From Patescibacteria group bacterium (GTDB taxonomy: Bacteria > Patescibacteriota > Patescibacteriia > Patescibacteriales > UBA12465): DNA of 64,000 nt. Positions 466-58,704 of the stretch are shown here, one piece after another. The DNA lies in the NCBI GenBank assembly GCA_041665845.1, contig JBAYIC010000001.1, forward strand, positions 137,531-201,530, read 5' to 3'. Positions within the stretch are counted from its first letter, which is position 1. Every line of letters begins with the position of its first letter. A program made the translations under genes and the position numbers. The notes under the pieces are model-generated. The model did no database searches. It was not told where the DNA came from and saw only the letters and a list, made by a program, of their open reading frames with translations.

Positions 466-1230
466 TTAAAACCATCTGGCAGTTAATAATAATATCGTGA
501 TTATCACGGAACTAAAAATAAGCGGCCAACGCATAGTATGAACCGAGAAATTATTCTTTAAGGTTAAACGTAGTGCCATTAAAATTAAATAATAAAAGAT
601 AGCGACAAAAAAACCAAGGATGTTAAAACTTAATGGTAAAAAATAAAGAACTAAAGTTAATTCGGCTAAAATAAAAATACTAGCTAGAAAGAATGGCCAT
701 TTTTCCAAAATATTTAAACGACCAAGAACAAAGGATTGAAAAAACAAAGGGGTTGTAAAAATAATAAATAAAACAAACAACGGCCAAAAGCTTAAACCCA
801 AAAACGTTGGCAAGCCATAAATAGTTGCCGCTAAGGTAAACACCGATAAAAAACCAGAAATTGTCATTAAATTATTTAATTTCTCCGCTCTTTCTAAAGC
901 GCCATAATTCAAAAAATAGTATATATTTCTGAGATAATAAAAAGTAAAACTAGCTGATAAAAATAAGATGAATTGAATCCAATAATAATCCGAGATGAGG
1001 GCGGCGTACAAAGAGACCCCTAAAAATAAAATAGCGGGGAAAAAAAAGAAAAGTGGCCAATTCTTACTCCCCTGTTCTTTCTCCATTCCTTTAATAGCAA
1101 ACGCTAATAACAAAAAACTAAAAGCAATGGAAATATAAAAAAATCTTGGCTCTAGCAGAAAAAGTTGGCTAAAAAGCCAAATTAATATTGGAACTAAGAA
1201 AATTGTTTTTCTACTCTTAAAAAAATTCAT
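466..1230 (-). CDS. Polytopic integral membrane protein, unknown function
   Basis: 254-aa ORF that is almost entirely hydrophobic helices. It is tightly packed with the upstream gene (9-nt gap). Confidence 0.75.
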   Translation of the reverse strand: MNFFKSRKTIFLVPILIWLFSQLFLLEPRFFYISIAFSFLLLAFAIKGMEKEQGSKNWPLFFFFPAILFLGVSLYAALISDYYWIQFILFLSASFTFYYLRNIYYFLNYGALERAEKLNNLMTISGFLSVFTLAATIYGLPTFLGLSFWPLFVLFIIFTTPLFFQSFVLGRLNILEKWPFFLASIFILAELTLVLYFLPLSFNILGFFVAIFYYLILMALRLTLKNNFSVHTMRWPLIFSSVIITILLLTARWF

Positions 1231-1238
1231 AATATAAT

Positions 1239-3608
1239 CTAAGGATTCATGTCCGTGGAAGTTGCACTGGTCGAGGTTGAGGTTGCTGGAGTGGAGTTTG
1301 CTGGAGTGGAGCTTGAAGTTGAACTTGCTGGAGTGGAGCTTGCTGGAGCTGAAGATGAGTCTATGGTACTAGAAGCAGGGGTTTCAACAGGAAGAGCGGC
1401 CGGGATAGTCGGCTCAACCACCGGAGTAATAATATAGTCCTCTTGACCAGGAGTCAATATCAAGGATTTTACTTCGCTTAAATCTGTGAGATTATTGATC
1501 TTTAAAAATTTATTAGAAAAAGTAAATAAGTTGCTATCAACATACAAACTTCTGCTAACAGTATTGTTATTATAACTTTGCCAAGAACTAATTGCTGAAG
1601 AATTGGCTGGCAAATGATTTATTTTTCCATTCAACTTTAAAAGATCATTCTCAATGGAAAAAACTAAAGAACCGGAAAATAAAAGCTTACCATCTTCTCG
1701 CAAAACAGCGGGAACAGAAATTAAATTCTTCCCTTCTGAGTATAAGAAAGCTCGATGATCATTTAAAGCAACGGAATCGCTATATTCATTTCCAATAATA
1801 TAACTGCTTAATTCTTTGGGTTTACTTAAATCTGTAAGATCAAATAAGGATAGTTTCAAACCTTTAATCTTCACGCCACCATCAGTTGCCTCCTCGGCAT
1901 CCCGACCAAAACCAATTATCTTAGTACCGGCCTCATTGGCGGGATGAAGATATGTAGAAAATCCGGGTATTTTTATGGCTCCTAAAATAGCTGGTTTGGT
2001 TTTGTTGGTCAAATCAATAACATAAAGAGGGTCAGTTCTTTTAAAAGTAACTATATAAACTCGATTATTCATGAACCGAGTAGAGTATATTTGCTCATCA
2101 GTCGCAATATTCTCCAAACTACCAACCAGCCGCAAATTCTCATCCAAAACATAAACATTGCTATACGATTTTGTTGAATCAGTAAAAAGTCGAGACCACA
2201 TTTCATTCCTAGTAGTTGCTAAGCGTAAACTACCCGAGTTCTCATCCATGGAAAATTGATTCAATATTTTTCCTTGGACCTCACCCTTAGCTTGATACTC
2301 TGCTTTACCCGCCTTAATAGCTATCCTATAGATTACTGTCTTTTCTAAATCTTTCATTCTTGCTTTAATCTTGTTTAGCAAAGCAGAATCGATTTCCGCT
2401 TGAATTGCTTTGCGCCCAGTATCGTCCAAAGAATAAAAATAATGATTAACAATATTTGCGACCTTCATCGCTTTTTCCTCTTTACTGAGAATAAACGATG
2501 CCACTGCTTCTATTTGTTTTATCTTATCTTGTTCCGCTTGCTCTAATTTAGAAAAAATATTTTCTTGCTTAACTTCTTGCTCGAGTTCGTATTCGCTTAT
2601 GTATTCTGTATTAGCGATATAGATATTATTGGTTGAAACATAAATATTTTCTCCGGAATTGATAAGATAAACCTGCCCCCCGACTAATTCACTTGGGTCG
2701 CTGATATTAATAGAATTTACCGAGGTAAAATTATAATTATCATAAGGCGCATCAAAGTAAAATACTTCTGGAGAAAAACATTTACCTGTTCCTAAACCAC
2801 AGCCACCGCTAATTATTTTATCATTTTCTAGAATTCTAGGCGTAAGCGGTTCACCCTCGCTATAATAAGCGTAATTATTGGTAATAAAATAAACATAATT
2901 ACCAATTAGTCTAGCTGATACATAGTTTCCTTCAAAATCTAAACTGCGAGTCTCTTTTGGCTCGGCCGGATTAGATATATCAAACACCTTGAAAAAAATA
3001 TAACCATTACGACGCTTGAAGGAATCAGTAATAGACTTTTCATAAATTCGATAATCATTTCCAAAGACTACCAATTTATCATCAGAAACAAAAATATCAC
3101 TTGGAGTAGACTTAAAAGTTATTCTACTTATTTCCTTGGTCTGGTCAGCCGGAGTAACATTAATAATTAATAACTCATTCTTTACTACAGCATAAATATA
3201 TTTTCCATCAGTTTTAATAATATCCGCCTCATCAACACCAAAAACTTGATTATTGGTAGTTGAATAATCTGAACCGGAACCAACTGCACTGGCCGACGCT
3301 GAGTCCATCGATAAACTCGATAAATTTTTTGTCATTGAACTAAAAACTTCTCTATTTACGGTCATTCCTCTTTCCGAGGTATTGCTTTGTAAAAAATTCT
3401 TTAATTCTTCATCATTTTTAAATTTTTTTATCTCATTGGTTTTTACTGATTCATTTTCCGTAGGCACTGTTGATTTTTCTGATTGATTAACAGTTTCCGC
3501 ATTCCTAGATTTTTCCCAAGGGAAAGTACAACCGCTTAGAATAAGGGTTGATAAAATAAAAAGAAAACTGAGCTTAAATACTTTTTTAAACATATAATTA
3601 TAATTCAA
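1239..3608 (-). CDS. Secreted beta-propeller domain lipoprotein (Beta_propel-type) with a Ser/Thr/Pro-rich C-terminal tail
   Basis: The signal peptide carries the lipobox LILSGC. The motif YSTTNNQVFGVDEADIIKTDGKYIYAV is characteristic of the bacterial/archaeal beta-propeller family. The C-terminus is APASSTPASSTSSSTPANSTPATSTSTSATST. Confidence 0.8.
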   Translation of the reverse strand: MNYNYMFKKVFKLSFLFILSTLILSGCTFPWEKSRNAETVNQSEKSTVPTENESVKTNEIKKFKNDEELKNFLQSNTSERGMTVNREVFSSMTKNLSSLSMDSASASAVGSGSDYSTTNNQVFGVDEADIIKTDGKYIYAVVKNELLIINVTPADQTKEISRITFKSTPSDIFVSDDKLVVFGNDYRIYEKSITDSFKRRNGYIFFKVFDISNPAEPKETRSLDFEGNYVSARLIGNYVYFITNNYAYYSEGEPLTPRILENDKIISGGCGLGTGKCFSPEVFYFDAPYDNYNFTSVNSINISDPSELVGGQVYLINSGENIYVSTNNIYIANTEYISEYELEQEVKQENIFSKLEQAEQDKIKQIEAVASFILSKEEKAMKVANIVNHYFYSLDDTGRKAIQAEIDSALLNKIKARMKDLEKTVIYRIAIKAGKAEYQAKGEVQGKILNQFSMDENSGSLRLATTRNEMWSRLFTDSTKSYSNVYVLDENLRLVGSLENIATDEQIYSTRFMNNRVYIVTFKRTDPLYVIDLTNKTKPAILGAIKIPGFSTYLHPANEAGTKIIGFGRDAEEATDGGVKIKGLKLSLFDLTDLSKPKELSSYIIGNEYSDSVALNDHRAFLYSEGKNLISVPAVLREDGKLLFSGSLVFSIENDLLKLNGKINHLPANSSAISSWQSYNNNTVSRSLYVDSNLFTFSNKFLKINNLTDLSEVKSLILTPGQEDYIITPVVEPTIPAALPVETPASSTIDSSSAPASSTPASSTSSSTPANSTPATSTSTSATSTDMNP
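1262..1365. repeat. Short tandem-like nucleotide repeat (TTGCTGGAGTGGAG seen 3 times plus variants) encoding the S/T/P-rich tail
   Basis: Direct reading of 1283-1345 shows repeated gctggagtggag(c/t)tt units. This is the antisense of the low-complexity coding tail. Confidence 0.7.
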
Positions 3609-3647: not shown

Positions 3648-4367
3648 TTATTTCACAATTAAAACTTGCGTTCCCGCGTTAATTCTATCAAAAACGTATT
3701 GGGCGGAACCAATTCCTAATCTTATGCACCCATGAGAAACTGGTTTTCCTAAATGATCCTCCCCCTCGCGATAACCATTGGGCCAAACCGGAAGTTCATG
3801 AATACCAATCCCGCCTCTATCGAGCCCAAGCCAAAAAGGCATCCATAAGCCATAAGTTTTAGACCAAGCCTTCTTATTCTTATTAGCAACTTTAAAATTT
3901 CCCGTTGGCGTCGGCGTACTTTTTTTCCCAGTGGAGACAACGAATTCCTTCCATTTTTGATCACCAACATAATAAAATAATTTTTGACTGCTAAGTATTA
4001 TCTCTATTTTTTGAACAAGTTTAACAGTCGAACTTGATAAAGGATTAAACCCTCTATCTATTTCTTCAAAATCAGAATATCCATCCTGATCGGTATCGGC
4101 TACGAAAGAATCGGTTTTAAATTTAAGTTCAAAATAATCACTTAAACCATCCTTGTCCATATCACTTTTTTCTATTTTTATTGGTTCAGGATTAAAAGGT
4201 GAATACCCTTTCTCAATTTCTAAAACATCGCTATAACCATCATTATCCGAATCTAAAGACCTAACTTCAACGGTAGGCATTTCTTGGGCAGAGACTAACA
4301 GTGGAGAAAAACACAGCAAAAAAGCTAATATCAACAAGCCAAAGGATACAATATTTTTTTTAATCAT
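3648..4367 (-). CDS. L,D-transpeptidase (YkuD domain) with N-terminal Asp-rich calcium-binding-type repeats
   Basis: Signal peptide present. Three D-x-D-x-D-G-x-S-D repeats (DSDNDGYSD, DMDKDGLSD, DTDQDGYSD). The C-terminal catalytic motif is SHGCIRL. Confidence 0.88.
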   Translation of the reverse strand: MIKKNIVSFGLLILAFLLCFSPLLVSAQEMPTVEVRSLDSDNDGYSDVLEIEKGYSPFNPEPIKIEKSDMDKDGLSDYFELKFKTDSFVADTDQDGYSDFEEIDRGFNPLSSSTVKLVQKIEIILSSQKLFYYVGDQKWKEFVVSTGKKSTPTPTGNFKVANKNKKAWSKTYGLWMPFWLGLDRGGIGIHELPVWPNGYREGEDHLGKPVSHGCIRLGIGSAQYVFDRINAGTQVLIVK

Positions 4368-4377
4368 TATAATAATA

Positions 4378-5943
4378 TTAATTGCGAATTGAATATTTAC
4401 AACCGCAGAATTTTTGACGATAGATTCCTAGTTCCTTAGCTAATTCTTGAGATTTTCTATAACCATCATTAGCTTGAAAATCTTCTTCTATAAATTTAAC
4501 TCCAAAACTTAAAGACAAATCAGTCGACATCTTGATGATTGCCTCTTTGTCTTTATAGGGGCTAGTTAAAAGGGTTGTCCCAAAAAAATTAAAATCTTTT
4601 TCTTTAGCTAGTTTTACTGTTTCACGCAAACGATCTAAATAACAAATTTGGCAACGAGCACCTCTTTCTGGATCAGTTTCTCGCCCTTTAATTTTTTGAG
4701 ACCAACGCTTATTATCATAAGGAACAACGATGAGTTGAATACTAAATTTTTCCGCCATTAATTTAACCGCTTCTAAGCGCTTATCGTATTCTTCCTGAGA
4801 AACAAGATTGGGATTATAAAAAAACCAAGTTAAACGATAACGAGGAAGCAACAAATCACGACTAACATAAGTTCCACACGGCGCACAACAAATATGTAAC
4901 AACAGAGAGGGTTTTTTTAATTCTTGACGCCGATCTAATAACCTGAAAGAAATAATAATAATTAACATCAAGAATAATAAAACAATCAAAACTAAAACCT
5001 TTCCGCGACTTTGTAAAAATAAACCACTCAAACCAAAGACTAAAGAAAATAAATAAAAAATCAAAACGGTTTTTTTCTGTCCGAAACCTAAATTAAGTAA
5101 ACGATGATGGAGATGCTTATTATCGGAGAATTTGAAAGGGTTTTTGCCTTGTGATAAGCGCCTAATTATGGTCCAAGCAACATCGAGAATCGGTATGCCC
5201 ATAATAAGTAAGGCAATCGCAATTTTACCCCCAGAAATTATGGCTAAGACGCCAAGAGCAAAACCAAAAAATAATGAACCGCCTTCTCCTAAAAATATTT
5301 TTGCCGGATGAAAATTAAAAATTAAAAAACCTAGTGCTGCCCCGGCTAAAATTAAAGCTCCCAAAGCGATATCGGGCTGATAATATTTCGTAGTAAGCGT
5401 AAATAAAAAAATAACTAAAGCGCCGATTGCTCCAACACCACTCACCAATCCGTCAACCCCATCTAAAAGCTTAGTGGTATACATCATGCCTAATAACCAA
5501 ACGGCAATAAGTATCGGACTAATTAAAAGCCAGTCTTTAAGATAAATAAAACCACCCAAGGGATTGGTAATTTTATCAATTTCTACGCCACCAATAATAA
5601 CCGCAATAATTGCCAACAACGGAAAAATAATTTGCTTAGTGGGGGCTAGATTATATTTATCATCTAAGGCGCCACCAATAATAATTATCAGTGCACCGAT
5701 AAAAAAACCTAAGAGATGTCGCCATTCTAAATCACCGGCTAAAAAACGCTCAGAGAAAAAAAATAAAACTGCGAAAAAAGATATAAAAATAGCGATGCCA
5801 CCTAAAAGCGGTATTGCCTGATTATGAATTTTTCTCTCCCCTGGCTTATCAACAATATTAAAATAAACAGCGATTTTTTTAATGCCAATAGTTAAAATGA
5901 CTGATAATAAAAAACTGGCTAAAAATGGGTAAATATAGGACAT
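4378..5943 (-). CDS. Fusion protein. The N-terminal part is a polytopic MraY/WecA-family (GT4) polyprenyl-phosphate sugar-1-phosphate transferase. The C-terminal part is an epoxyqueuosine reductase QueH (DUF208) domain.
   Basis: The N-terminal ~340 aa has about 10 TM helices with LDGVDGL and DDKYN motifs. The C-terminal ~175 aa reads LLLHICCAPCGTY...FFYNPN...RCQICY...TTLLTSPYKD...YRQKFCGCKYS, which is colinear with QueH. Confidence 0.85.
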   Translation of the reverse strand: MSYIYPFLASFLLSVILTIGIKKIAVYFNIVDKPGERKIHNQAIPLLGGIAIFISFFAVLFFFSERFLAGDLEWRHLLGFFIGALIIIIGGALDDKYNLAPTKQIIFPLLAIIAVIIGGVEIDKITNPLGGFIYLKDWLLISPILIAVWLLGMMYTTKLLDGVDGLVSGVGAIGALVIFLFTLTTKYYQPDIALGALILAGAALGFLIFNFHPAKIFLGEGGSLFFGFALGVLAIISGGKIAIALLIMGIPILDVAWTIIRRLSQGKNPFKFSDNKHLHHRLLNLGFGQKKTVLIFYLFSLVFGLSGLFLQSRGKVLVLIVLLFLMLIIIISFRLLDRRQELKKPSLLLHICCAPCGTYVSRDLLLPRYRLTWFFYNPNLVSQEEYDKRLEAVKLMAEKFSIQLIVVPYDNKRWSQKIKGRETDPERGARCQICYLDRLRETVKLAKEKDFNFFGTTLLTSPYKDKEAIIKMSTDLSLSFGVKFIEEDFQANDGYRKSQELAKELGIYRQKFCGCKYSIRN

Positions 5944-6051: not shown

Positions 6052-6264
6052 ATGGGTTCTACAGCAGATGAAATTAAAAGAGTGATAATATGCATTAATA
6101 TCACCCTAAAGGCCGTAAAAGACAAGCTTACGGCAGAAGGAAATAATGCAACTCCGAGCCAATATAAAATATTGGTCTGGGAAAAAGAAATACGGCACCT
6201 TAGACGTGCTCTGGAAAAAAAGAACAAAGAATTAAAACAAAAAAGAACAAGAGTAATGGCCTAA
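6052..6264 (+). CDS. Small hypothetical protein (70 aa) with a basic coiled-coil-like C-terminus
   Basis: AGGAGG ribosome-binding site sits 10 nt upstream of the ATG. A terminator hairpin follows. Confidence 0.55.
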   Translation: MGSTADEIKRVIICINITLKAVKDKLTAEGNNATPSQYKILVWEKEIRHLRRALEKKNKELKQKRTRVMA

Positions 6265-6285: not shown

Positions 6286-6320
6286 AAAACGCGTTCGGGT
6301 AACTGGCGCGTTTTTTTATT
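6286..6320. terminator. Bidirectional intrinsic terminator between convergent genes
   Basis: AAAACGCG (6286-6293) pairs with CGCGTTTT (6307-6314). A T-run follows. Confidence 0.6.
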
Positions 6321-9010
6321 TAAAGTGCTTCGGCTTTTTCAATCAATACTTCCGCCTTGTTGTTAATTATCACTTGATCGCGACGTTTTAATTCACCGGC
6401 TAAAAGTTTATTAGCGATCATATCTTCAACTTTATCTTGCAATAATCTCCTTAAAGGTCGGGCGCCGAATTTCGGGTCATATCCGGCCTTGGCTAAAATC
6501 ATGACGCCATCTCTATCAGCTTTAAGGCCAATTCCTTTTTCGGCTAACACCTTCTTAATTTTCTTCAACATTAAGGTTGTAATGGTAAAAATATTTTCTT
6601 CATCAAGCGGTTTAAAAACAATAATTCCATCAAAACGATTAATAAGCTCCGGACGCATATGCTCACGTAGCTGATTATCGATTAACTCTTGTTTAATAAT
6701 ATTTAAATTAGTTTTTGCCTTGATTTGATCCTGAATAAATATCGCGCCGATATTAGAAGTTGCGATAATAATCGATTCGGCAAAACTAATTGTTCTTCCC
6801 TGCCCATCCGTTAAACGCCCATCGTCTAAAAGCTGTAAGAAAAGATTCAAAATATCAGGGTTAGCTTTCTCTATTTCATCAAGTAGAACTAAAGCAAACG
6901 GTTTTTTTCTAACCGCCTCAGTTAAATAACCAAGCGTTCCATCCACATCACCGATCATTTTTCTAATACTATCTGCTTGCTGATATTCACTCATATCCAA
7001 GCGAATGAGATAATCTTCACTTCCAAAGTATATTTGCGAAACTGCTTTAGCGAGTTCAGTTTTACCAACACCAGTCGGTCCGAGAAATAAAAAACTAGCA
7101 ATTGGACGATGACTATCTTTCATGGCCGCTCGCGCTCGACGTAAACTAGCCGATACTGCTTTAACGGCCTCATCTTGCCCAACTAATCTTTCATGTATCT
7201 CATGTTCTAAATTAAGCAGTTTTTGCCCTTCATCAACGCCAACTTTGCTAGTCGGAATACCGGTTAGTTCAGCAATCGCTAAAGCGACATCTTCTTTTGA
7301 ACAAAATAATCTTTCGGGATTATTTTTACTCGCAGCTACAGCAATTGTAACTGCTTTTTCTAGTAAATTAATCGCTTTAAGTGGTAACGCCTTATCATGC
7401 AAATATCGCATCGACATCTTTACTGCCTGTTCAATAGCACTGTAAACAATGTAGATATCATACTTAGATTCCAAAAAACCAACCCTGCTCTCTAATATTT
7501 GAATTGCTTCATTAACATCCGGCTCTTTAATGCCAATAGTCGTCATCGCCTCGCCCAAGGCTTTATTTTCAATATAATGAGTATAATTTTCCGTCGTCGC
7601 TGAAGCTAAACAAAAAATTCCTTTACGACCTATTGTTTCAGCTAAAACTTCCGATAAATCCAAACTTTCTTTACTACCAGCGCTAACCCCAATTAAATTT
7701 TCAATATTATCAATGTATAAAATTATATTACCGGAACGTCGAGCTTCATTCATACAACCTAAAAGTCTTTCTTCAGCCGCGGAGGGATCGGCGCCACTTA
7801 TTAGTTTAGAAACGTCTAATTCAACTAATCTTTTATCTTTCAAAAAGGCCGGGACATCTTCTTCGACCATCATCTGAGCTAGTCCTCCAATAATAGTACT
7901 TTTTCCGACTCCATTTGGCGAAACCAATAAAACGCCATTATGGCCACCGGCAAAAGCCTCAAAAATTGAAGTAATTTCCTTAGTTCTTCCGACACAAAGA
8001 TCAAGCTCACCATTTTTAGCTTTTAACGTTAAATCGCGAGAAAAATGATCTAAAGAAGGGGTCGCGATTGCCGTATAAGAACGATTCATCCCCGAATTCG
8101 GCTTAAACAAGGCTGAGCGTTTATATTCATAATAACGATCCATTAATTTTTTATTTACTCGAAACCACTCAACCGCATTTATCATCTTATCTTCATCAAC
8201 TTCTAGCTCATACATTATTTCTGCTAGATTTTTATCTTGACCATAACAAAAAATAATAACGTTCAACAAATCAACCCCGTTTTGTTTTAAATTATAAGCA
8301 TTAATAAACGCCGAAATGAGCGCTTCTTGCAAATTTTCAGAAATATTTTCTTCAGCATCAGCCTTTTTGCTAGCTGATTTTACTAATTGCCTATCGACCA
8401 TTTCAATCATCCGTTTAGCATCAACATTAAGGCGTATAAAAAGACTTTGAACTTCTTTAGTTTTTAAAGCCGCTCGAAAAAAATGGATAATTTCAACCTG
8501 GTTGCAACCCAGTTTATTAGCTAAAAGAAAAGCGTCTTCTAAAACTCTAGTTGTTTCTTCAGAAAAAGCTTGAGCCGTATTATAACGCCGTCCCGAATCA
8601 TTCTTAAACTTCTTATCTGTTTTAAAAAGCTTATAATTTATTTTTTTAATTGCAGCTGCGGCCGCCCTAGTTTTATAAACAAGAAACAAGTCAAACCATA
8701 AAGAAAGAAGAAAAAAAGCAATCAAAATATCTGGTTTAACCCAAGAAAAAAGAATATTAAGTGGGTCAGCTTGTAATTCCGTTCGATTTATAAAAATCCA
8801 AACAGCAAAGACTGCCCAACCAGCAAAAATGATTAACCAAGAAAAAAAACTTAAAATTTTGTTTATTTGCAATCTGGATCGTTCAAGAGCAATTAAAGAT
8901 TTTTTAATAGTTTTATTCCAATATAAAAAGCGTCCCAAAAACCAAGCTCCTTGCCCCTTGCCGCCGCTATCTGGTATAAATTCGATTTTATCATCTTGCT
9001 GCTTACTCAT
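6320..9010 (-). CDS. Membrane-anchored Clp/Hsp100-family double AAA+ ATPase, ClpA/C-like architecture without an M-domain, with a degenerate NBD1
   Basis: N-terminal TM helices are followed by two Clp_N-like repeats. NBD1 has Walker A SPNGVGKST and Walker B ILYIDNIE (Asn where the catalytic Glu is expected). NBD2 is canonical ([27 protein letters not shown]). The start was chosen at MSKQQ (9010), which abuts the upstream stop at 9012. The track start is 9040. Confidence 0.85.
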   Translation of the reverse strand: MSKQQDDKIEFIPDSGGKGQGAWFLGRFLYWNKTIKKSLIALERSRLQINKILSFFSWLIIFAGWAVFAVWIFINRTELQADPLNILFSWVKPDILIAFFLLSLWFDLFLVYKTRAAAAAIKKINYKLFKTDKKFKNDSGRRYNTAQAFSEETTRVLEDAFLLANKLGCNQVEIIHFFRAALKTKEVQSLFIRLNVDAKRMIEMVDRQLVKSASKKADAEENISENLQEALISAFINAYNLKQNGVDLLNVIIFCYGQDKNLAEIMYELEVDEDKMINAVEWFRVNKKLMDRYYEYKRSALFKPNSGMNRSYTAIATPSLDHFSRDLTLKAKNGELDLCVGRTKEITSIFEAFAGGHNGVLLVSPNGVGKSTIIGGLAQMMVEEDVPAFLKDKRLVELDVSKLISGADPSAAEERLLGCMNEARRSGNIILYIDNIENLIGVSAGSKESLDLSEVLAETIGRKGIFCLASATTENYTHYIENKALGEAMTTIGIKEPDVNEAIQILESRVGFLESKYDIYIVYSAIEQAVKMSMRYLHDKALPLKAINLLEKAVTIAVAASKNNPERLFCSKEDVALAIAELTGIPTSKVGVDEGQKLLNLEHEIHERLVGQDEAVKAVSASLRRARAAMKDSHRPIASFLFLGPTGVGKTELAKAVSQIYFGSEDYLIRLDMSEYQQADSIRKMIGDVDGTLGYLTEAVRKKPFALVLLDEIEKANPDILNLFLQLLDDGRLTDGQGRTISFAESIIIATSNIGAIFIQDQIKAKTNLNIIKQELIDNQLREHMRPELINRFDGIIVFKPLDEENIFTITTLMLKKIKKVLAEKGIGLKADRDGVMILAKAGYDPKFGARPLRRLLQDKVEDMIANKLLAGELKRRDQVIINNKAEVLIEKAEAL

Positions 9011-9011
9011 A

Positions 9012-9380
9012 TTAATAACTAATCTGATAAAATAAGGCAATTATTAAAAATAAAGGTAGGGCTAACCATAATCCCGCCCCAGCAATAAGTACTAATAACC
9101 ATAATATTAAAACTAAACCTCTAAAAATAATTTGAAGAAAACGAATAAAAAAACTAATTACTCGACCAGCCAAATCATATTGGCCGTACATTGGAACAAA
9201 AATATTCTTCAGCCAAATATTAAATCCTAAACTTTTTTCTTGATTACGCAAAAAATTGAGCTCCTTTTTTAAGGTCTCAATAAAACCAACACTATACCAC
9301 CAAAGAGGAAAATAAATAATTTCTCCCAAAGTCTTAAGGATTATTTTTCCGCCGTAAGTCAAAAAATTATGTCTAAACAT
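9012..9380 (-). CDS. Small integral membrane protein, unknown function, first gene of a two-gene operon with the membrane Clp ATPase
   Basis: The ORF has 3-4 TM helices. The start was chosen at MFRHNF (9380), because the longer track ORF to 9443 would run through the clpB promoter. The stop is 1 nt from the next gene's start. Confidence 0.6.
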   Translation of the reverse strand: MFRHNFLTYGGKIILKTLGEIIYFPLWWYSVGFIETLKKELNFLRNQEKSLGFNIWLKNIFVPMYGQYDLAGRVISFFIRFLQIIFRGLVLILWLLVLIAGAGLWLALPLFLIIALFYQISY

Positions 9381-9523: not shown

Positions 9524-12163
9524 ATGTTCAATAAATTTACTGACAAGTCCCAAGAGGCAATCATCAATGCTCAAACAATTGCTTCAAATTACGGTCAACC
9601 TAATATAGAAGCAATTCACATCTTTCTAGCTCTTCTAGAGCAAAGCGAGGGATTAGTTAAGCCTGTTTTAGAAAAAATGAAAATTGACCCGGAAATAATA
9701 GAGGAAGAAGTAATTAAAGTTATCAAAAGTTTGCCAAGAACAAAAATTTTTCCACAAAACGGACCGGTTCAGGCTGTATCAGGAACGGCAGAAACCGCGG
9801 CTGTTTTAGAAAGAGCCCAGAAAGAAGCCGACGGAATGAACGATGAATTTATTTCCACAGAACATATTCTACTTGCGCTCATCGGTATTCCCTCTCCCGC
9901 ACAAAAGATTCTGCTTGATTTTAAAGTAGAATATAAAATTATTAAAGATATTCTAAAAGAACTGCGTGGCTCACAAACTGTTAACGATCAATTCCCAGAA
10001 AATAAATTTCAAGTCTTAGAAAAATACACAACCAATTTAACAGAGATGGCTAGACAAGAAAAACTTGATCCAGTTATCGGACGCGATATGGAAATAAGGC
10101 GTATTATGCAAGTCCTTTTGCGTCGTACTAAAAATAATCCGGTTTTAATTGGTGAAGCTGGTACTGGAAAAACAGCCGTCGTTGAAGGATTAGCACAAAG
10201 AATAGTTTCGGGAGATGTTCCAGAAAATTTAAAAAACAAAGAAATCATTTCTCTAGATTTAGGCGCTATTGTTGCTGGAGCAAAATTTCGAGGCGAATTT
10301 GAGGACCGGTTAAAAGCAATTTTAAAAGAAGTTAAATCGCAAAATGGCCGTCTGATTCTATTTATTGATGAACTACATACTCTCATTGGCGCTGGCGCCT
10401 CTGAAGGTTCAATGGACGCCTCTAATATGTTAAAACCAGCTTTAGCGAGAGGTGATTTACGAACTATCGGCGCAACCACAACCAAAGAATATCAAAAATA
10501 TATTGAAAAAGACGCCGCCCTAGAAAGAAGATTTCAACCAATTTATGTTTCCGAGCCTAGCGTTGAAGATACTATTAGTATGCTCCGCGGTTTGAAAGAA
10601 AAATATGAAGTCCATCACGGTGTAAGAATAACTGATAATGCTTTAATTGCCGCCGCCAAATTATCGCATCGTTATATAAGCGATCGTTTTCTTCCTGATA
10701 AAGCAGTTGATCTTATTGATGAAGCAACCTCTTCTCTGCGCATGGAAATAGATTCTATGCCCGATGAACTTGATCAATTAAAAAGAAAAATAAACCAGCT
10801 TGAATTAAATAAGGCTGGACTCATGACGACTGATAAGAAATCTCCTAAAATAAGAGCAATTAATCAAGAATTAGCTAAATTGAAAGAAAAATCCAATCAA
10901 TTAGAACTTCATTGGAACAATGAAAAAAACATTATTTCTCAAATTAGAAATTCTAAAAAAGAAATTGAAGATTTAAAAATAAAATCAGAAATCGCTCAAA
11001 GACAAGGAGCGGATTTAACCGAGGTCGCAAAAATAAAATATGGCTTAATTCCTGAATTAGAAAATAAAATCAATCAATCTCAAGAAGAATTGTTAAAAAT
11101 TCAAAAAAGAGGGCAAAGAATACTGAAAGAAGAGGTTGATGAAGAAGATATCGCTAAAGTAGTTGCCCGTTGGACCGGTATCCCGGTTAATAAAATGCTT
11201 CAAGATGAAATTAAAAAATTAAGTGATGCCGAGAAAAACTTAAACCAAGAAGTAGTCGGCCAAGAAGATGCAATTAAAGCAGTAGCGAATGCCCTTAGAA
11301 GGTCGCGCGCCGGAATAAATGAAGAAAAAAGACCAATCGGTTCTTTCTTATTTGTTGGACCAACCGGAGTTGGGAAAACTGAACTAGCAAAAACTTTAGC
11401 GCAATTTATGTTTGATGACGAAAAATCTCTCATTAGACTAGATATGAGTGAATTCATGGAGAAACATTCAGTCGCTAAATTAATCGGTTCACCTCCTGGA
11501 TATATTGGTCATGATGATGGCGGACAATTAACAGATAAGGTTCGTCGCCATCCTTACAGTGTTGTTTTATTTGATGAAATAGAAAAAGCTCATCCCGATA
11601 TGTTTAACGTCTTATTGCAAATATTGGATGATGGGCGCTTAACTGATTCTAAAGGGAGAACGATAAACTTTAAAAACACAATCATCATTATGACCTCCAA
11701 TCTAGGGAATGAGGTCATAAAAAATTATTCTATTGGCTTTAATGATGAAAGTGATAAAAAGCAAGCAACCAAAACAAGAGTTAGCGAAATGAAAGAGAAA
11801 ATCGATAAAATTCTCAAAGATCATTTCAAGCTTGAATTTTTAAATCGCATTGATGAGGTTGTTCTCTTCCATAGCTTATCGCCTGAAGCTCTAGAAAAAA
11901 TAGTCGACTTGGAACTCAGTAAAGTAGAAAAGAGATTGGCCGCTAAAAATATTAATGTTAAAGTCGGCTCTAAGGTTAAAAAAATGTTAGCGGAAAAAGG
12001 CTATGATATAACCTATGGCGCAAGACCACTAAAAAGAATTATCCAAAATCTCATTTTAGATGAACTTGCTCTAGAAATAATTGAGGGTAAAATAAAAGAA
12101 GGTGAAAAAGTAAAAATAGATTTAGAAGGAAAAGAAAAAATTACCATTGAAATAATAAAATAA
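9524..12163 (+). CDS. clpB: Chaperone/disaggregase ClpB
   Basis: 879 aa with Clp_N repeats. NBD1 has GEAGTGKT and LFIDELH. A long coiled-coil M-domain is present. NBD2 has [12 protein letters not shown] and LFDEIEKAH. Confidence 0.97.
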
Positions 12164-40620: not shown

Positions 40621-41952
40621 ATGGAAAATTATTCGGGAAAATTCATCGTAATTGACGGTACAGATGGAAGTGGAAAAACCACTCAGCTTAACTTACTCAA
40701 AGAAAAATTAGAATTTGAAGGTTATGCGGTTGAAGTTGCTGATTTTCCACAATACAATACTAAGTCCTCAGGATTAGTCGAAGAATATCTTTCCGGTAAA
40801 TACGGCCAAGCCGATGATGTTGATCCTTACAAAGCTTCAATCTTTTATGCAGTTGATCGTTTTGATGCGAGCGCGAGAATAAAAAAATGGCTCCAAAACG
40901 GAAAAATCGTTTTAGCTAATAGATACACTAGCGCAAGTTTGGGCCATCAAGGCTGTAAAATAGATAATCCCCTAGAAAGAAAAGTCTTTTTTAATTGGCT
41001 ATATGATTTAGAATATAAAATCTTTGAAATACCAAAACCGGATTTAACTATTGTTTTGCAAGTAGAACCGGAAATATCTTATGCACTCGCCCAAGAAAGG
41101 GTGCGCGAAGATTGGACGGGGAAAACTAATGATATTCATGAGAATAATTTTAATCATCTTAAGAAAGCGGAACAGACTTATTTAGATATAGCGAACACTA
41201 TCCCTGGTTTTAAATTAATAAAGTGCACTCATAACGGACAAATTTTAAGCAGAGAGTCAATTCATTTCTTGGTTTGGTTGGCCGCTAGCCAGTTAATCGT
41301 CCATCAAGTTAAAACTGGACATGGCTTTGAACAGATTGGTAATTTAATGGGTTCTAACGAACAAATATTAAAAAACCGCGATTTAATTTTTAATAATAGC
41401 ATTAATCCGCCTATTAATGCACCGATAATTAGTAGGGAAAATCAGCCTGAAGCAAGACCGGAAATAAGAACCGAACCAATATCTATTCCTGCTACGAACA
41501 TTATTCCTACTCCGCCCACACCAATATCAATAAAGTTAAAAGTGGAAAAGGTTTCTCCCGAAGCAAAGATTCCACAAAAGGCTCATACAGGCGACGCCGG
41601 TTACGACTTGTATGCTAATGATTATTATTCAATAACCGCTTATGGCCAAGCCTTGGTGCAAACTGGAATAAAAATGGCGATACCCGACGGACATGTTGGT
41701 TTGATTTGGGATAAAAGCGGATTAGCAAATGAAGGAATAACAACCATGGGTGGCGTAATAGACGCTAATTATCGCGGAGAAATAAAAGTAATTGTTAAAA
41801 ATTTAAGTGAGGATATTTTTAATATTGTTCCCGGTCAAAAAATAGCCCAAATTATTATTCAAAAAATAGCTAATTCTGAGCTAGAAGAAGAAAAAATAAC
41901 AGAAATCACCACTCGTCATGATTCCGGTTTTGGTAGCTCGGGGAAATTTTAA
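40621..41952 (+). CDS. Fusion of thymidylate kinase (N-terminal) and dUTP diphosphatase (C-terminal)
   Basis: The Tmk part has FIVIDGTDGSGKTTQ and DRY-like NRYTSAS. A Pro-rich linker follows. The Dut part has TGDAGYDLYA, GVIDANYRGEIKVIVKN, GQKIAQIII and the C-terminal GFGSSG. Confidence 0.9.
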   Translation: MENYSGKFIVIDGTDGSGKTTQLNLLKEKLEFEGYAVEVADFPQYNTKSSGLVEEYLSGKYGQADDVDPYKASIFYAVDRFDASARIKKWLQNGKIVLANRYTSASLGHQGCKIDNPLERKVFFNWLYDLEYKIFEIPKPDLTIVLQVEPEISYALAQERVREDWTGKTNDIHENNFNHLKKAEQTYLDIANTIPGFKLIKCTHNGQILSRESIHFLVWLAASQLIVHQVKTGHGFEQIGNLMGSNEQILKNRDLIFNNSINPPINAPIISRENQPEARPEIRTEPISIPATNIIPTPPTPISIKLKVEKVSPEAKIPQKAHTGDAGYDLYANDYYSITAYGQALVQTGIKMAIPDGHVGLIWDKSGLANEGITTMGGVIDANYRGEIKVIVKNLSEDIFNIVPGQKIAQIIIQKIANSELEEEKITEITTRHDSGFGSSGKF

Positions 41953-55853: not shown

Positions 55854-57455
55854 TTAATACCCATTTATTAAAAATGGTAACAAAGCGATAGTTTTTCTAT
55901 TGGGGCCAGCCAATATAAAAACGGGAATAATTCTTCCATCGAGCATTAGTTCTGTGGATGATAATCCTGGTTGGAACAAAGTGATAGCCTGCTTGCGTAA
56001 GTTATTTATTGCACTTGCAGCTACCATAGATAAATCAGAAATTTTCTTACTCAGATAATCTCGACGAAACTGATCATCGGACATATTAATCCAATCTATT
56101 TTTACCAAATCAGACCAATCTATCTGCATTAGTTTTTTGGTTTCTAGCACAGAAAGTTCTTCCCAAGTTCTTTCAAAAAACATGGCGAGAACAGGATTGT
56201 TGACGTATTCTTGAAAGTTACCATCAAACACTTGTTCAACTGCTTTTCTTTCATAAGATGACATCCTTTTTTCCGCTCTGTTTTTACGAACAAGATTATA
56301 ACCAAACACTAAATCCGAAGGCAAGGTAGAAGATTTTGGATCTAACGCAAAAGAAGTCGCCCGATCAAATGGATCTTTACCGCTAATTGTTACGGCTATA
56401 ACCGATTCGTTATGAACGTTATAAAGATAGCTCTTAGCCGAACCGTCAGCAAAAAAATTATGCAAAAATGCATTATACGCATTTGCCATTAAAAATAAAG
56501 TTGTTTGTTCTAACTCCTCAGGAGCCATCGAGCCAATAATTCTTTTAACTTCTTTTTCAAAAATTTGATACAACTTAGAACGCATTTTTTTAATATTGTT
56601 CCAAAATTGTAAAGAAGATTCTCTGTAATCAGCCAAATAATCGCAATTAAAATAATGTTGAATGAATAATTCTTTAACTGCTTTCATTGCGACTAATTTC
56701 TCTGTGGATATAATTTTATCCTCAGAAGAAAGGGCTGATAAGATTTCGTCCGTATAACCCTGAGAAATAACTCTCCCATCATATAGACATTCCTCCTTAT
56801 CCAAACCAAGGTAGCAATAACCATTTATCGGATTAAAAGAAGTTTGAATAACAAAAAGTTGTTTGCGATTTCCATATTTTTGAGTAACATGCTCAATGGC
56901 CGCCCTTTTCATTTTTGTTTTTCTAATAACATCATCACGCAGCCCACTGTCAAGCACCTTCATCGCATGAAAATCATTAGCTCTTAGCCCTCCAGCTGCG
57001 CAATACAAATGAGAATCAAAGATCTGATTTACAAAGTCTTGATCTTTAAATGCTTCATCCAGCATATCAGAAAAAGCGCCAGAGATTAGAAACAGATTAC
57101 CAGGACTATTTTTACTTGGCAAAAATTCGTTTCTAATATCACCAGCGGGCGTACAGAATGCATGCCCGTGGAAACAACCAATTAATTTTGGACGTACGCG
57201 TACATCCATACATAGAACAAAATACGGAACGCCATACGGGAATAAAGAATTCTTGATCCTAATAGCTTTTTGGACTTCTGGAGACTTAACGTCATCCAAA
57301 CGTAACTCGCGAGAATAAATGAACTGGCCGAGTTTAAAAGCGGCCATTTCAAAGGCTTTACTTTTATTAGAGCGCCCTTCAAAATAAACATTGAAGGCTT
57401 GTTCTAAATAATTAAGAACACCTTGAGTTTCTGGAATTTCAGGAAATTTTACCAT
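55854..57455 (-). CDS. Uncharacterised 533-aa protein with a beta-carbonic-anhydrase-like CxDxR...HxxC signature, a distant paralogue of the adjacent 356-aa protein
   Basis: C82-M-D84-V-R86 and H149-L-Y-C152-AAGG. Colinear blocks are shared with the 57634-58704 product. No other family was recognised. Confidence 0.8.
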   Translation of the reverse strand: MVKFPEIPETQGVLNYLEQAFNVYFEGRSNKSKAFEMAAFKLGQFIYSRELRLDDVKSPEVQKAIRIKNSLFPYGVPYFVLCMDVRVRPKLIGCFHGHAFCTPAGDIRNEFLPSKNSPGNLFLISGAFSDMLDEAFKDQDFVNQIFDSHLYCAAGGLRANDFHAMKVLDSGLRDDVIRKTKMKRAAIEHVTQKYGNRKQLFVIQTSFNPINGYCYLGLDKEECLYDGRVISQGYTDEILSALSSEDKIISTEKLVAMKAVKELFIQHYFNCDYLADYRESSLQFWNNIKKMRSKLYQIFEKEVKRIIGSMAPEELEQTTLFLMANAYNAFLHNFFADGSAKSYLYNVHNESVIAVTISGKDPFDRATSFALDPKSSTLPSDLVFGYNLVRKNRAEKRMSSYERKAVEQVFDGNFQEYVNNPVLAMFFERTWEELSVLETKKLMQIDWSDLVKIDWINMSDDQFRRDYLSKKISDLSMVAASAINNLRKQAITLFQPGLSSTELMLDGRIIPVFILAGPNRKTIALLPFLINGY

Positions 57456-57633: not shown

Positions 57634-58704
57634 TTACCAAGCTATTTCTTCAAATTCACGAGTATGAAAGTTGATAACAACTGATAAGATATGCATTTTC
57701 TTGGCTAATTCAGGATTGTAAGCTTCAATGGTTTTCTTAGCAAAATCTTTCAAAAATCTCACTCTTTCAATCGCTTTATTTCTTTCCGAGCCTAGTTCTT
57801 TAAATGTGGCCGAAGTAAGCAGAACAAAACCATCATCACTAATTCTACCCGCTTCCATATTAGACTGAATAATCCCCGCAGCTTTCTTAATCGGCTCTTC
57901 TAAGCTATCGCCATACGGACCAATAATTAAACTAATATTAGGAATATGGAGCCAATCAAAACCGTTCCCTAAACCTAAAATCCATTCCTGATGTTGAGTT
58001 TCAACAATTGGTCTATTCTCGGCAGCAATTTCTTTAATATGTTCAATGTTCCCTTTAATAAGCGGTAAGATATCATCCAACACTTGATCGGACATATTAG
58101 GATACAAATCACGAAGGGCAATTAAAAATTCCTGTTCGGTTTTATTTTTTTCTTTTACTAAATCAAGTATTTGATTATGATCTTCGCCATGAAAAATTAA
58201 AGAATCGTTATCAGTTTCTACGCCGACAATAATAGGAAAAACAATTGAATTATTTTTACCATAAATTCTTTCTACCTGTGCCCTTAAACTAATAGCATGT
58301 TGAAAGGCGGCAACTTTATCATAATTAAAACCAGCACAACCGCGATGAACATCACCGCAAGAAAAATGATAAGTTACTAAAATTAAAGATTTTCTGCCTC
58401 GGCTAATAGAATAATCTATCCAACCATTTAAATCTTCGGCTAAATAAGGCCAACCTAAATCAAAACGACCGCCTAAACTTCGATAAGGTCGGATGATTCC
58501 TAGCGGAGTACGTGTCATCAGCGGAATATGAATACGGCCATCCATACATTTAAAGGCTGAAATTTCCGTTGGATGTTGAGCACGATAAAAACGACGCACT
58601 AAACGTTCATTATTATATTTTTCCGAATGAAACTTATTGAGTTCAAACAACCATTTAATTTTTTGCTCCAAAGAAGCCTTAACCATTTCTTTAGCACGAT
58701 GCAT
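57634..58704 (-). CDS. Divergent beta-carbonic-anhydrase-like protein (356 aa) with an unrecognised C-terminal ~170-aa extension
   Basis: C53-M-D55-G-R57. G69-x5-R75-x2-G78 has the same spacing as the GDxFVxRNxGN segment of beta-CAs. H113-F-S-C116-G lies 60 residues after the first Cys. The gene starts 29 nt after the atpC stop, and no terminator lies between them. Confidence 0.8.
   Translation of the reverse strand: MHRAKEMVKASLEQKIKWLFELNKFHSEKYNNERLVRRFYRAQHPTEISAFKCMDGRIHIPLMTRTPLGIIRPYRSLGGRFDLGWPYLAEDLNGWIDYSISRGRKSLILVTYHFSCGDVHRGCAGFNYDKVAAFQHAISLRAQVERIYGKNNSIVFPIIVGVETDNDSLIFHGEDHNQILDLVKEKNKTEQEFLIALRDLYPNMSDQVLDDILPLIKGNIEHIKEIAAENRPIVETQHQEWILGLGNGFDWLHIPNISLIIGPYGDSLEEPIKKAAGIIQSNMEAGRISDDGFVLLTSATFKELGSERNKAIERVRFLKDFAKKTIEAYNPELAKKMHILSVVINFHTREFEEIAW

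Follow-up and report, generated by a model that had tools for sequence, protein, structure and literature searches.

A GT4-type membrane transferase fused to full-length QueH in a clade of Patescibacteria, likely holding the queuosine enzyme at the membrane

We analyzed a window of 64,000 nucleotides from a Patescibacteria group bacterium (the whole stretch of DNA examined), in which one gene encodes a membrane transferase and a tRNA-modification enzyme on a single chain. This gene and its neighbors, all on the same strand, are:

466..1230, minus strand: 254-aa polytopic membrane protein without a Pfam family, last gene of a conserved co-directional block
1239..3608, minus strand: secreted beta-propeller protein (PF09826; Pfam), a member of that block
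3648..4367, minus strand: YkuD L,D-transpeptidase gene (signal-anchor, TSP3 repeats and YkuD; Pfam), 10 nt past the fusion stop
4378..5943, minus strand: the whole fusion ORF, with an ATG start, 521 aa and its stop codon at 4378-4380
6320..9040, minus strand: ClpB/ClpC-like double-AAA+ protein with an N-terminal membrane segment, directly upstream in nearly all loci

No terminator was predicted between the fusion gene and the L,D-transpeptidase gene, in a promoter and terminator scan that did no better than chance, and no riboswitch or other RNA element was found upstream of the fusion gene. Other neighbors are joined in the window genome too (for example, Tmk-dUTPase).

The 521-aa chain carries two domains, a GT4/PNPT membrane domain (aa 1-340) and then a full-length QueH (aa 347-520). 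The preliminary description of this DNA had reported a single uninterrupted 521-aa frame, without giving its strand, and the ORF list agrees (4378..5943, minus). All the motifs it quoted are present in the translation: DDKYN (aa 94-98), LDGVDGL (160-166), LLLHICCAPCGTY (347-359), FFYNPN (374-379), RCQICY (430-435), TTLLTSPYKD (456-465), and FCGCKYS (512-518). The junction, which it had placed near nt 4900-4930, does lie there, at aa ∼337-346 (nt ∼4906-4935). The parts of the fusion are:

4924..5943, minus strand: GT4 / polyprenyl-phosphate N-acetylhexosamine-1-phosphate transferase (PNPT) domain, aa 1-340 (Pfam PF00953)
5650..5664, minus strand: DDKYN motif (D94, D95), the cytoplasmic-loop Mg2+/catalytic aspartates of PNPTs (sequence)
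5446..5481, minus strand: YTTKLLDGVDGL, aa 155-166, counterpart of the canonical NxxNxxDGxDGL (alignment to MraY 5JNQ)
5275..5289, minus strand: GEGGS, aa 219-223 (alignment to E. coli MraY 8G01, "fmgdvgs" against "flgeggs")
4906..5001, minus strand: TM11 (aa 315-336) and the short basic connector DRRQELKKPS (hydropathy, model)
4384..4905, minus strand: QueH (DUF208) domain, aa 347-520, cytoplasmic, full-length (Pfam PF02677)
4876..4890, minus strand: CCAPC (C352, C353, C356), first cluster/iron-ligand motif (sequence, alignment)
4642..4653, minus strand: CQIC (C431, C434), second Cys pair, kept in 71/71 relatives
4399..4407, minus strand: CGC (C513, C515), third Cys pair, kept in 71/71 relatives

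The QueH half matches PF02677 over aa 347-520 and nearly the whole profile (positions 1-174 of 175; E 7.9e-59; 199.1 bits against 23.5; Pfam), and a phmmer comparison with Thermotoga maritima QueH (7LC5) spans the entire chain (E 8e-29). In the AF2 model (pLDDT ∼88-97 over most of aa 341-500), this half superposes on 7LC5 with a TM-score of 0.90 and an rmsd of 1.5 A; the pTM of the fusion model is 0.67, so the pose of the two domains relative to each other is uncertain. The three cysteine motifs CCxPC/D, CxxC, and CxC, which we take to be the ligands of the [4Fe-4S] cluster and neighboring iron of QueH, are all present, and the seven cysteines are kept in 71/71 relatives. We base this ligand assignment on alignment with 7LC5 and on the fact that entries for C9S and D13N mutants exist. 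Eleven more family-invariant residues (N377, N379, E385, R389, E426, R430, R438, L458, S461, K464, and Q510) are also kept in 71/71 relatives, fused and split, and the same positions are near-invariant among 150 diverse QueH representatives. The fused QueH domains are as basic as standalone ones (median pI 8.86 and net charge +6 in the former, 8.78 and +6 in the latter; 8.98 and +6 in T. maritima QueH). The two founding papers on QueH are those of Zallot in 2017 and Li in 2021.

The GT4 half matches PF00953 (Glycos_transf_4) over aa 78-237 (E 1.3e-27; 97.2 bits against a cut-off of 27; Pfam). Hydropathy and positive-inside analysis predict 11 transmembrane (TM) helices, with the N-terminus outside and the C-terminus cytoplasmic; the catalytic loops are all predicted to be cytoplasmic, as is the exit of TM11. 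The model of this half superposes on MraY (TM-score 0.73-0.78) and on DPAGT1 (∼0.67); the preliminary description had proposed modeling the fusion, and the two halves of the model match MraY and T. maritima QueH. The scores of the GT4 half fall below the NCBIfam equivalog cut-offs for WecA (TIGR02380; 129.6 against 326) and MraY (TIGR00445; 63.9 against 192), and also below the cut-off of the archaeal MraY profile (83.2 against 450). The DDxxD/N pair and the DGxDGL aspartates of PNPTs are present, whereas the canonical Asn, Asn, and catalytic Asp of (V/I)F(M/L)GDxGS are absent: the two Asn are replaced by Tyr155 and Lys158 (alignment to MraY 5JNQ), and Glu220 occupies the position of the MraY/WecA catalytic Asp of GDxGS. 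D94, D95, and E220 are invariant in 111 homologs (56/56 in fused ORFs selected by the pattern H.CC..C), and Y155, T156, T157, K158, D161, and D164 are family-invariant. The earlier assignment of the protein as WecA/MraY-type plus QueH thus stands for the Pfam domains and falls for a WecA or MraY equivalog, given the sub-cut-off scores and the three differing PNPT positions. Since Glu220 is a conservative replacement, activity is still plausible, and we regard this half as putatively active despite Y155, K158, and E220. Both halves are complete and constrained, with catalytic or cofactor residues kept.

In the structure model, a single unbroken helix (aa 315-343) leads straight into the first QueH strand (346-350), and the region of TM11 and the connector is the end point of standalone GT4 orthologs. 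Because the connector is short and helical, the N-terminal Cys motif of QueH is expected to lie near the membrane.

The fusion protein is found identical in at least three assemblies (the NCBI contig of 206,756 bp, ENA k141_1145503, and Logan SRR6484324_36468). An ORF-level check of 81 species-level loci found 60 fused in an unbroken frame (53-80% identity) and eight split; one of the fused loci is on the complete 977-kb chromosome CP066698.1 (GCA_016432645.1). Large fusion-bearing contigs also include JBAZKQ010000001.1 (809 kb) and CAYYDR010000001.1 (678 kb). The 120 best database homologs (protein clusters) all carry both domains as well. The search for the same architecture in other genomes, suggested in the preliminary description, succeeded. 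Of its two conditions against novelty, an architecture that is widespread and one already described, the first holds: the fusion is not rare but occurs throughout its clade, and databases list it under automatic names. We found no paper describing a GT4-QueH architecture in the literature searchable here.

Relatives with separate genes show how the fusion formed. A standalone GT4 ortholog in locus L008 (7658-8734) shares 61% identity and the same odd motifs with the GT4 half and ends exactly at the junction, and the QueH adjoining it is 47% identical to the QueH half. The gene order in L008 and L091 is GT4-DJ-1-VanZ-QueH; in L088, which is sister to the single fused clade, GT4, VanZ, and QueH are three overlapping ORFs. 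The comparison shows a single origin of the fusion, by merger of neighboring genes in a Falkowbacteria-type clade of ultra-small Patescibacteria; VanZ was lost once, so that the last helix of GT4 took over as the membrane anchor of QueH. Within the fused clade the arrangement has continued to change. Eight genomes nested in it have re-split ORFs whose stop and start codons overlap, and their QueH copies are acidic, mostly with His350Gln; L076 and L081 have lost QueH from the locus with GT4 intact, and 10 genomes keep GT4 in a locus that lacks QueH. In all, there were at least two departures of QueH from the locus and at least two fusions of the downstream L,D-transpeptidase onto the protein; the latter gave triple proteins of 731-794 aa whose in-TM-out topology runs onward to an extracytoplasmic YkuD. 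The covalent GT4-QueH link is dispensable. Divergence is faster in the QueH half: distant members, for instance, share 39-50% identity there, compared with 58-66% in the GT4 half.

QueH is prone to fusion generally, with VanZ as its foremost partner. Among the 150 closest QueH representatives, the partners are VanZ (18), UDG (3), RNase HII (2), HAD (2), and methyltransferase (2), with single cases of Alr, Amidase_3, 5-FTHF cyclo-ligase, radical SAM, and GNAT. The closest relatives of the window QueH are mostly membrane-anchored already, via a VanZ-like module. Since other VanZ-QueH genes adjoin MgsA/RarA-type AAA genes, the adjacency to GT4 is lineage-specific. In databases, VanZ-QueH proteins are named either "QueH" or "VanZ family protein."

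We also looked for the partner genes of the queuosine pathway. Tgt is encoded in Patescibacteria (NCBI label "Candidatus Paceibacterota"), according to a database search with a CPR Tgt clade that we recovered by searching metagenomes for low-GC tgt with TTTGATTGTGTNNNNCCWACWMGW; none of the CPR Tgt matches is labeled Falkowbacteria or lies on a fusion-bearing contig. The contigs listed for Tgt and those listed for VanZ-QueH have no length in common. The tgt-queA pairs from that metagenome search are not CPR-type, and the result for Patescibacteria concerns Tgt, not QueA. The neighbor of the tgt in L163 that looked Falkowbacteria-like is MreB and is uninformative. Neither tgt nor queA occurs in ∼84 kb of the window genome and 1.6 Mb of related loci, which represent the same syntenic region or <10% of a genome. 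Likewise, tblastn with Zymomonas mobilis Tgt and E. coli QueA (both validated as probes) gave no match in the window or in 91 loci, a null result that is uninformative because all 91 loci share one syntenic region. The ∼20 kb added beyond the window ends contain no queuosine genes, and no tgt or queA lies beside QueH among the QueH genes inspected.

We consider it likely that the fusion is bifunctional and combines two complete enzymes, which most likely work independently, with QueH as a membrane-held epoxyqueuosine reductase. The N-terminal half would be a divergent polyprenyl-phosphate sugar-1-phosphate transferase that initiates an envelope glycopolymer at the cytoplasmic membrane face; the C-terminal half would be a canonical [4Fe-4S]/Fe QueH that converts oQ34 to Q34 on tRNA; and the last helix of the transferase would keep QueH at the inner membrane surface. 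Ancestrally, the genes for GT4, VanZ, and QueH were adjacent and translationally coupled, and in one Falkowbacteria-type clade VanZ was deleted and QueH was joined to TM11 of GT4, an anchor swap. The analysis shows the anatomy of the fusion, its conservation, topology, folds, and evolutionary series; that each half is enzymatically active and functionally independent of the other, and that anchoring brings any benefit, is inferred. Of the two readings in the preliminary description, a tether for QueH or a redox role on a lipid-linked substrate, the tether is favored by the VanZ-anchored closest relatives of QueH, by the sister lineage in which GT4, VanZ, and QueH are separate, by the retention of all family-invariant QueH residues, and by a basic surface like that of standalone QueH; the redox role found no positive support. 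Its view that initiation of envelope glycans and reduction of oQ are unconnected also agrees with the literature searchable here, in which no link is described. The association of QueH with VanZ, GT4, YkuD, and (singly) Alr and Amidase_3, together with the coupled split forms, could nevertheless reflect a real functional link between the halves. Also counting against this reading are the failure to find tgt or queA in the sampled parts of fusion-bearing genomes, the short helical connector, which may limit access of a tRNA anticodon loop to QueH, and the noncanonical Y155, K158, and E220 of the GT4 half.

Several other explanations have to be weighed against this one. An assembly or frameshift error joining two adjacent genes, the artifact that the preliminary description advised checking for, has some initial appeal, since split adjacent versions with overlapping stop and start codons occur in related genomes and a one-base error could mimic a fusion; the chance of this is negligible, because the identical protein is in at least three assemblies and the same continuous frame is in 60 species-level genomes, a closed chromosome among them, while the best 120 protein clusters are all fused. 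It is also very improbable that the queuosine pathway was lost and that the QueH half is a non-functional passenger on an essential transferase. The missing partner genes in the sampled parts of the window genome would fit such a relic, as would the loss of QueH at L076 and L081, the faster divergence of the QueH half, and the acidic re-split copies with their His350Gln. However, 18 positions, the seven metal-ligand cysteines included, are kept in 71/71 relatives at identities down to ∼40%, which is incompatible with neutral decay, and none of the 60 fused ORFs has a stop codon or frameshift.

A tethered QueH fold that serves envelope biogenesis instead of, or besides, tRNA maturation is unlikely. 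It might carry out a two-electron reduction (epoxide to alkene) on a polyprenyl-linked or nucleotide-sugar substrate, or act as an Fe-S redox or iron sensor that gates glycan initiation; we note that the deoxygenation of an epoxide to an alkene by QueH would in principle fit oxidized polyprenyl chains. Repeated fusion or coupling of QueH to envelope proteins points this way (VanZ in a large Patescibacteria family, GT4, the overlapping GT4/VanZ/QueH ORFs, the YkuD triple fusions, and the single Alr and Amidase_3 fusions), as do the near-rigid connector, which holds QueH against the membrane on the side that carries the GT4 active site, and the finding of no tgt or queA beside any QueH fusion or coupled gene. 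On the other hand, all the invariant residues of bona fide QueH are kept, including the polar and basic ones that are not ligands, along with the basic surface charge, and the fold is identical to that of the tRNA enzyme. Moreover, the partners of QueH include unrelated nucleic-acid and housekeeping enzymes, its adjacency to GT4 is lineage-specific, 10 genomes have GT4 in a locus that lacks QueH, re-splitting of the fusion is frequent and free, and Tgt is present in Patescibacteria. That QueH was recruited to the membrane (by VanZ first and a PNPT later) because it has something to act on or to sense at that site is quite unlikely; the possible roles would be reductive repair of oxidized undecaprenyl-phosphate, or Fe-S redox or iron gating of glycan initiation. 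If true, GT4-QueH and VanZ-QueH would reveal a new connection between lipid-carrier metabolism and an Fe-S reductase.

If instead the two enzymes simply work side by side, the fusion would be a clean, datable case of streamlined CPR genomes collapsing neighbors into multifunctional proteins, with topology-compatible partners joined in-TM-out. It also carries a warning for annotation: NCBI names the protein "QueH" and JGI "UDP-GlcNAc:undecaprenyl-phosphate GlcNAc-1-P transferase," and either name overlooks half of the fusion. The PNPT subfamily with altered catalytic-motif residues is large (at least 569 species genomes) and bears on the construction of the CPR envelope. QueH is membrane-anchored across much of Patescibacteria, mainly by VanZ, which is unreported in the literature searchable here. 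This raises the question of why the final queuosine step should be at the membrane: electron supply, salvage coupling, or a second function?

Compared with known systems, the QueH half resembles T. maritima QueH (PDB 7LC5, 7LC7, 9DEU; PF02677/IPR003828) at ∼34% identity, with the same fold, size, and basic charge, and with the Cys motifs and family-invariant residues all in place. It differs in following a polytopic membrane protein on the same chain, with hardly any linker between them, and in having Cys356 where T. maritima QueH has the aligned Asp13; CCAPC is the family consensus and Cys the family-majority state. QueG, the cobalamin-dependent epoxyqueuosine reductase, is a non-orthologous alternative to QueH; it catalyzes the reaction proposed for the QueH half, but its fold and cofactors are unrelated and it has no sequence similarity. 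The GT4 half has the fold of the PNPT/GT4 superfamily (WecA/TagO/MraY/DPAGT1), as seen in MraY and DPAGT1, and the DDxxN, DGxDGL, HxHH, and PxxRKxH loops, all cytoplasmic. WecA has 11 helices and MraY 10; with its 11 predicted TM helices and cytoplasmic C-terminus, the GT4 half is like WecA and unlike MraY. It departs from WecA and MraY in that invariant Tyr155, Lys158, and Glu220 replace Asn, Asn, and Asp and in equivalog scores that are far too low, and from known PNPTs in bearing a soluble enzyme at its C-terminus. The nearest relatives of the window QueH are the VanZ-QueH proteins of Patescibacteria (PF04892 plus PF02677, ∼300 aa), which belong to the same phylum-level group, share its ancestry, and are 44-49% identical to it; in these, too, QueH begins a few residues past the last TM helix (…KPKLLLHxCC…), but the anchor is a four-helix VanZ-like module rather than a glycosyl-phosphate transferase.

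The fusion gene is a single uninterrupted ORF, and each motif quoted in the preliminary description was found in its translation. As that description held, two unrelated parts are joined, a membrane transferase domain and a full-length QueH (DUF208) module; both Pfam matches are well over threshold, and the CCAPC, CxxC, and CxC motifs of the QueH half are intact:

window 4378-5943, minus strand: GT4-QueH fusion ORF, 521 aa
aa 78-237: Glycos_transf_4 (PF00953), E 1.3e-27
aa 347-520: QueH (PF02677), matched end to end, E 7.9e-59

An assembly artefact is an unlikely source of this ORF. The identical protein is present in three places (a 206,756-bp NCBI contig and one contig each from ENA and Logan), the 120 best database clusters (61-100% identity) all have both Pfam domains, and a species-level scan (one genome per GTDB species, giving 80 loci; 81 with the related locus L008 added) showed, by an ORF-level check, a continuous fused frame in 60 of the 81 loci, including that on the closed 977-kb chromosome CP066698.1; the junction was thus upheld and the same architecture found in other genomes. 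Records of related loci are titled Candidatus Falkowbacteria or Patescibacteria group; among the TPA bins bearing the gene, dozens (loci L015, L017-L019, L021, and many others) go under “uncultured Gammaproteobacteria bacterium” and isolated ones under “Planctomycetota” or “Bacillota”. We took these latter GTDB record titles as mislabels, because of sequence identity (53-80%) and the common gene order.

By NCBIfam the N-terminal half is nearest WecA, at 129.6 bits against an equivalog cut-off of 326, and it scores 63.9 bits against MraY (cut-off 192). Since these scores are far under both cut-offs, it is a divergent PNPT-superfamily protein, so that of the WecA/MraY-type label first given to it the superfamily stands and WecA or MraY proper does not. 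The modelled half superposes on MraY with a TM-score of 0.73-0.78 and on DPAGT1 with about 0.67. Three canonical PNPT positions are altered in the alignment to solved MraY chains:

window 5446-5481: NxxNxxDGxDGL, both Asn replaced (Tyr155, Lys158)
window 5275-5289: GDxGS, Asp replaced (Glu220)

These three residues are invariant across the family. The corresponding MYTTKLLD / PAKIFLGE patterns, present in 569 or more GTDB species genomes and in both standalone and QueH-fused proteins, mark a large PNPT/GT4 subfamily that carries invariant Tyr, Lys, and Glu for the canonical Asn, Asn, and Asp. Hydropathy predicts 11 TM helices, with the catalytic or Lys/Arg-rich loops (PGERKIH, DDKYN, LDGVDG, FLGEGGS, and HLHH) all on the same side; the chain exits TM11 on the cytoplasmic side (DRRQELKK), that of the predicted catalytic loops, which would place QueH on the side required for an Fe-S enzyme. 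In the AlphaFold2 model (from 111 sequences; mean pLDDT 85.8, pTM 0.67), a single helix (315-343) leads directly into QueH strand 346-350, and a flexible linker appears to be essentially absent.

When the QueH domain by itself was searched exhaustively against representatives of 50%-identity clusters, the GT4-QueH fusion, a tight clade, collapsed to two or three of them. Next in similarity (44-49% identity) are QueH proteins that mostly measure about 300 aa and carry an N-terminal four-helix VanZ-like module (PF04892), with QueH starting a few residues past the last TM helix (…KPKLLLHxCC…). A profile search showed VanZ-QueH to be a large family (database proteins P0126-P0166 and P0408-P0521), whose members, where named, are labelled Patescibacteria, Parcubacteria, or Falkowbacteria. 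Examples of this architecture, and of loci in which the parts are separate genes within the same syntenic block (ClpC-like … beta-propeller … membrane protein … PDZ), are:

L005:10001-11020: VanZ-QueH
L010:2594-3520: VanZ-QueH
L088:11049-11968: VanZ-QueH
L008 and L091: separate genes for GT4, DJ-1, VanZ, and QueH
L088: GT4 (361 aa), VanZ (122 aa), and QueH (184 aa) as three overlapping ORFs

The standalone GT4 of L008 shares 61% identity with aa 1-341 of the window protein, has the same odd motifs, and ends at the exact point where the window protein runs on into QueH; its adjoining QueH is 47% identical to that of the window.

In a neighbour-joining tree of the GT4 domain (no bootstrap), VanZ-bearing and GT4-only lineages are basal, and the fused loci fall in a single large clade that has L088 as its sister, a placement pointing to one origin of the fusion. 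Nested late within this clade are eight re-split genomes, in which the start codon of QueH (ATG) lies against or overlaps the stop of GT4 and QueH is anchorless. Two further nested genomes (L076 and L081) retain GT4 with QueH absent from the locus. The simplest history would be that VanZ was deleted from a GT4/VanZ/QueH operon, leaving TM11 of the transferase to serve as membrane anchor of QueH, the covalent link being later made and broken through small junction changes. Among the re-split copies, L019, L074, L077, L079, L080, and L083 have QueH ORFs beginning MKKLLLQICC… (L020 and L078 are further split copies); without the anchor these domains are acidic (median pI 5.6 vs about 8.9), and six of the eight carry His350Gln, so their function may be relaxed or altered after separation. 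GT4-QueH-YkuD triple fusions arose at least twice, in two separate groups (L018 and L038; L035, L050, and L051; ORFs of 763-783 aa), and are also seen in P0011, P0014, P0017, P0018, P0023, P0026, P0065, and P0122. Their order, GT4, QueH, TM anchor, TSP3 repeats, and YkuD L,D-transpeptidase, gives a coherent predicted topology, from cytoplasmic QueH through the TM helix to an extracytoplasmic transpeptidase.

Several other features were recorded in passing:

window 6052-6264, plus strand: basic 70-aa ORF, divergent from the fusion gene, whose ribosome-binding site (AGGAGG) is strong; related genomes retain a small ORF here (60-70 aa, without Pfam family)
window 6320-9040, minus strand: ClpB-type double-AAA+ gene (906 aa) beside the fusion gene, its N-terminal segment hydrophobic and membrane-like and its first AAA domain weak; almost every related locus keeps it upstream of GT4
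window 9524-12163, plus strand: second ClpB-type double-AAA+ gene, divergent from the first
window 40621-41952, plus strand: thymidylate kinase-dUTPase fusion, 443 aa (PF02223, aa 11-204; PF00692, aa 314-441); its linker is long and of low complexity
window 55854-57455, minus strand: 533-aa protein without family, adjoining the next
window 57634-58704, minus strand: 356-aa protein weakly matching the carboxysome-shell carbonic anhydrase catalytic domain (PF20686, E 1.4e-6); this gene and the one listed before it lie just downstream of the ATP synthase operon
L213:1722-2750, about 7-8 kb past the window's high-coordinate end: DUF1653-NUDIX-GrpE protein, 342 aa

Neither tgt nor queA was found in the window, in about 20 kb of sequence flanking it, or across 1.6 Mb of related loci, a result of little weight for one region and a small genome fraction; no riboswitch was found upstream of the fusion gene. 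A motif-based metagenome scan recovered an insertion-bearing Tgt clade (L118, L163, L177, L188, L193; P0288-P0407), whose database relatives bear the name [quoted passage not shown] and lie in typical CPR gene contexts; Patescibacteria therefore do retain Tgt. Within the sequences searched, neither Tgt nor QueA turned up in a fusion-bearing genome, nor QueA in any Patescibacterium. These proteins are about 400-495 aa long, vs roughly 370 aa in most other scan loci, the extra length looking like insertions of tens of residues; neither queA nor queH is close by. A survey found tgt usually to be the last Q gene lost, and no case of its loss with other Q genes kept (PMC10723273), so QueH without Tgt is unlikely a priori.

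As to novelty, fusion proteins are already in public databases under automatic names that cover one half only. Neither GT4-QueH nor VanZ-QueH was described in the literature reached by full-text searches that combined QueH, DUF208, or epoxyqueuosine with CPR, Patescibacteria, or VanZ; the nearest literature reports bacterial-type QueA, QueH, and Tgt co-localised in some DPANN archaea (PMC8204110).

QueH readily enters fusions in general. Partners among the 150 closest representatives are VanZ (18), UDG (3), RNase HII (2), GT4 (2), HAD (2), and methyltransferases (2), with single cases of alanine racemase, Amidase_3, 5-FTHF cyclo-ligase, radical SAM, and GNAT (examples are P0148, P0150, P0179, P0183, P0184, P0205, P0207, P0220, P0241, P0258, and the RNase HII-QueH protein of Hippea jasoniae, WP_084675106.1; one methyltransferase is PrmA-like, and Amidase_3 is a MurNAc-L-Ala amidase). 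The conspicuous envelope partners would suit a functional coupling of the two halves, but nucleic-acid and housekeeping enzymes are among the partners too, the GT4 adjacency is lineage-specific (other VanZ-QueH genes adjoin MgsA/RarA-type AAA genes), and the window's genome fuses other neighbouring genes as well, as in the thymidylate kinase-dUTPase and DUF1653-NUDIX-GrpE proteins; no mechanistic link between glycan initiation and queuosine is required by these data. Both readings offered at the outset can be graded: a membrane tether, acquired by an anchor swap from VanZ to GT4, is favoured as the probable one, and a repurposed or coupled QueH, including a redox role, is improbable. GT4-QueH is of modest interest on its own; the data do show membrane-anchored QueH to be an old and widespread preference in Patescibacteria, and the reason for it is the more interesting question.

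A repurposed QueH and a relic domain, the latter also unlikely, are both opposed by the constraint on the QueH half. In 71 QueH domains from species-level loci, the most divergent at about 40% identity, the full set of seven Cys and N377, N379, E385, R389, E426, R430, R438, L458, S461, K464, and Q510 are conserved in 71/71, and these 18 positions are also near-invariant among 150 diverse QueH representatives. The median pI and net charge are 8.86 and +6 for the fused domains and 8.78 and +6 for standalone QueH, values that do not tell the two apart; conservation and basic charge together count against decay and against a change of substrate, and the fused domain has the look that an unchanged nucleic-acid-binding QueH should have. 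The modelled C-terminal half superposes on T. maritima QueH with a TM-score of 0.90 (rmsd 1.5 Å); Asp13 of the T. maritima protein corresponds to Cys356 here, Cys being the family-majority state, and in pI and net charge (8.98, +6) that enzyme is indistinguishable from the fused domains.
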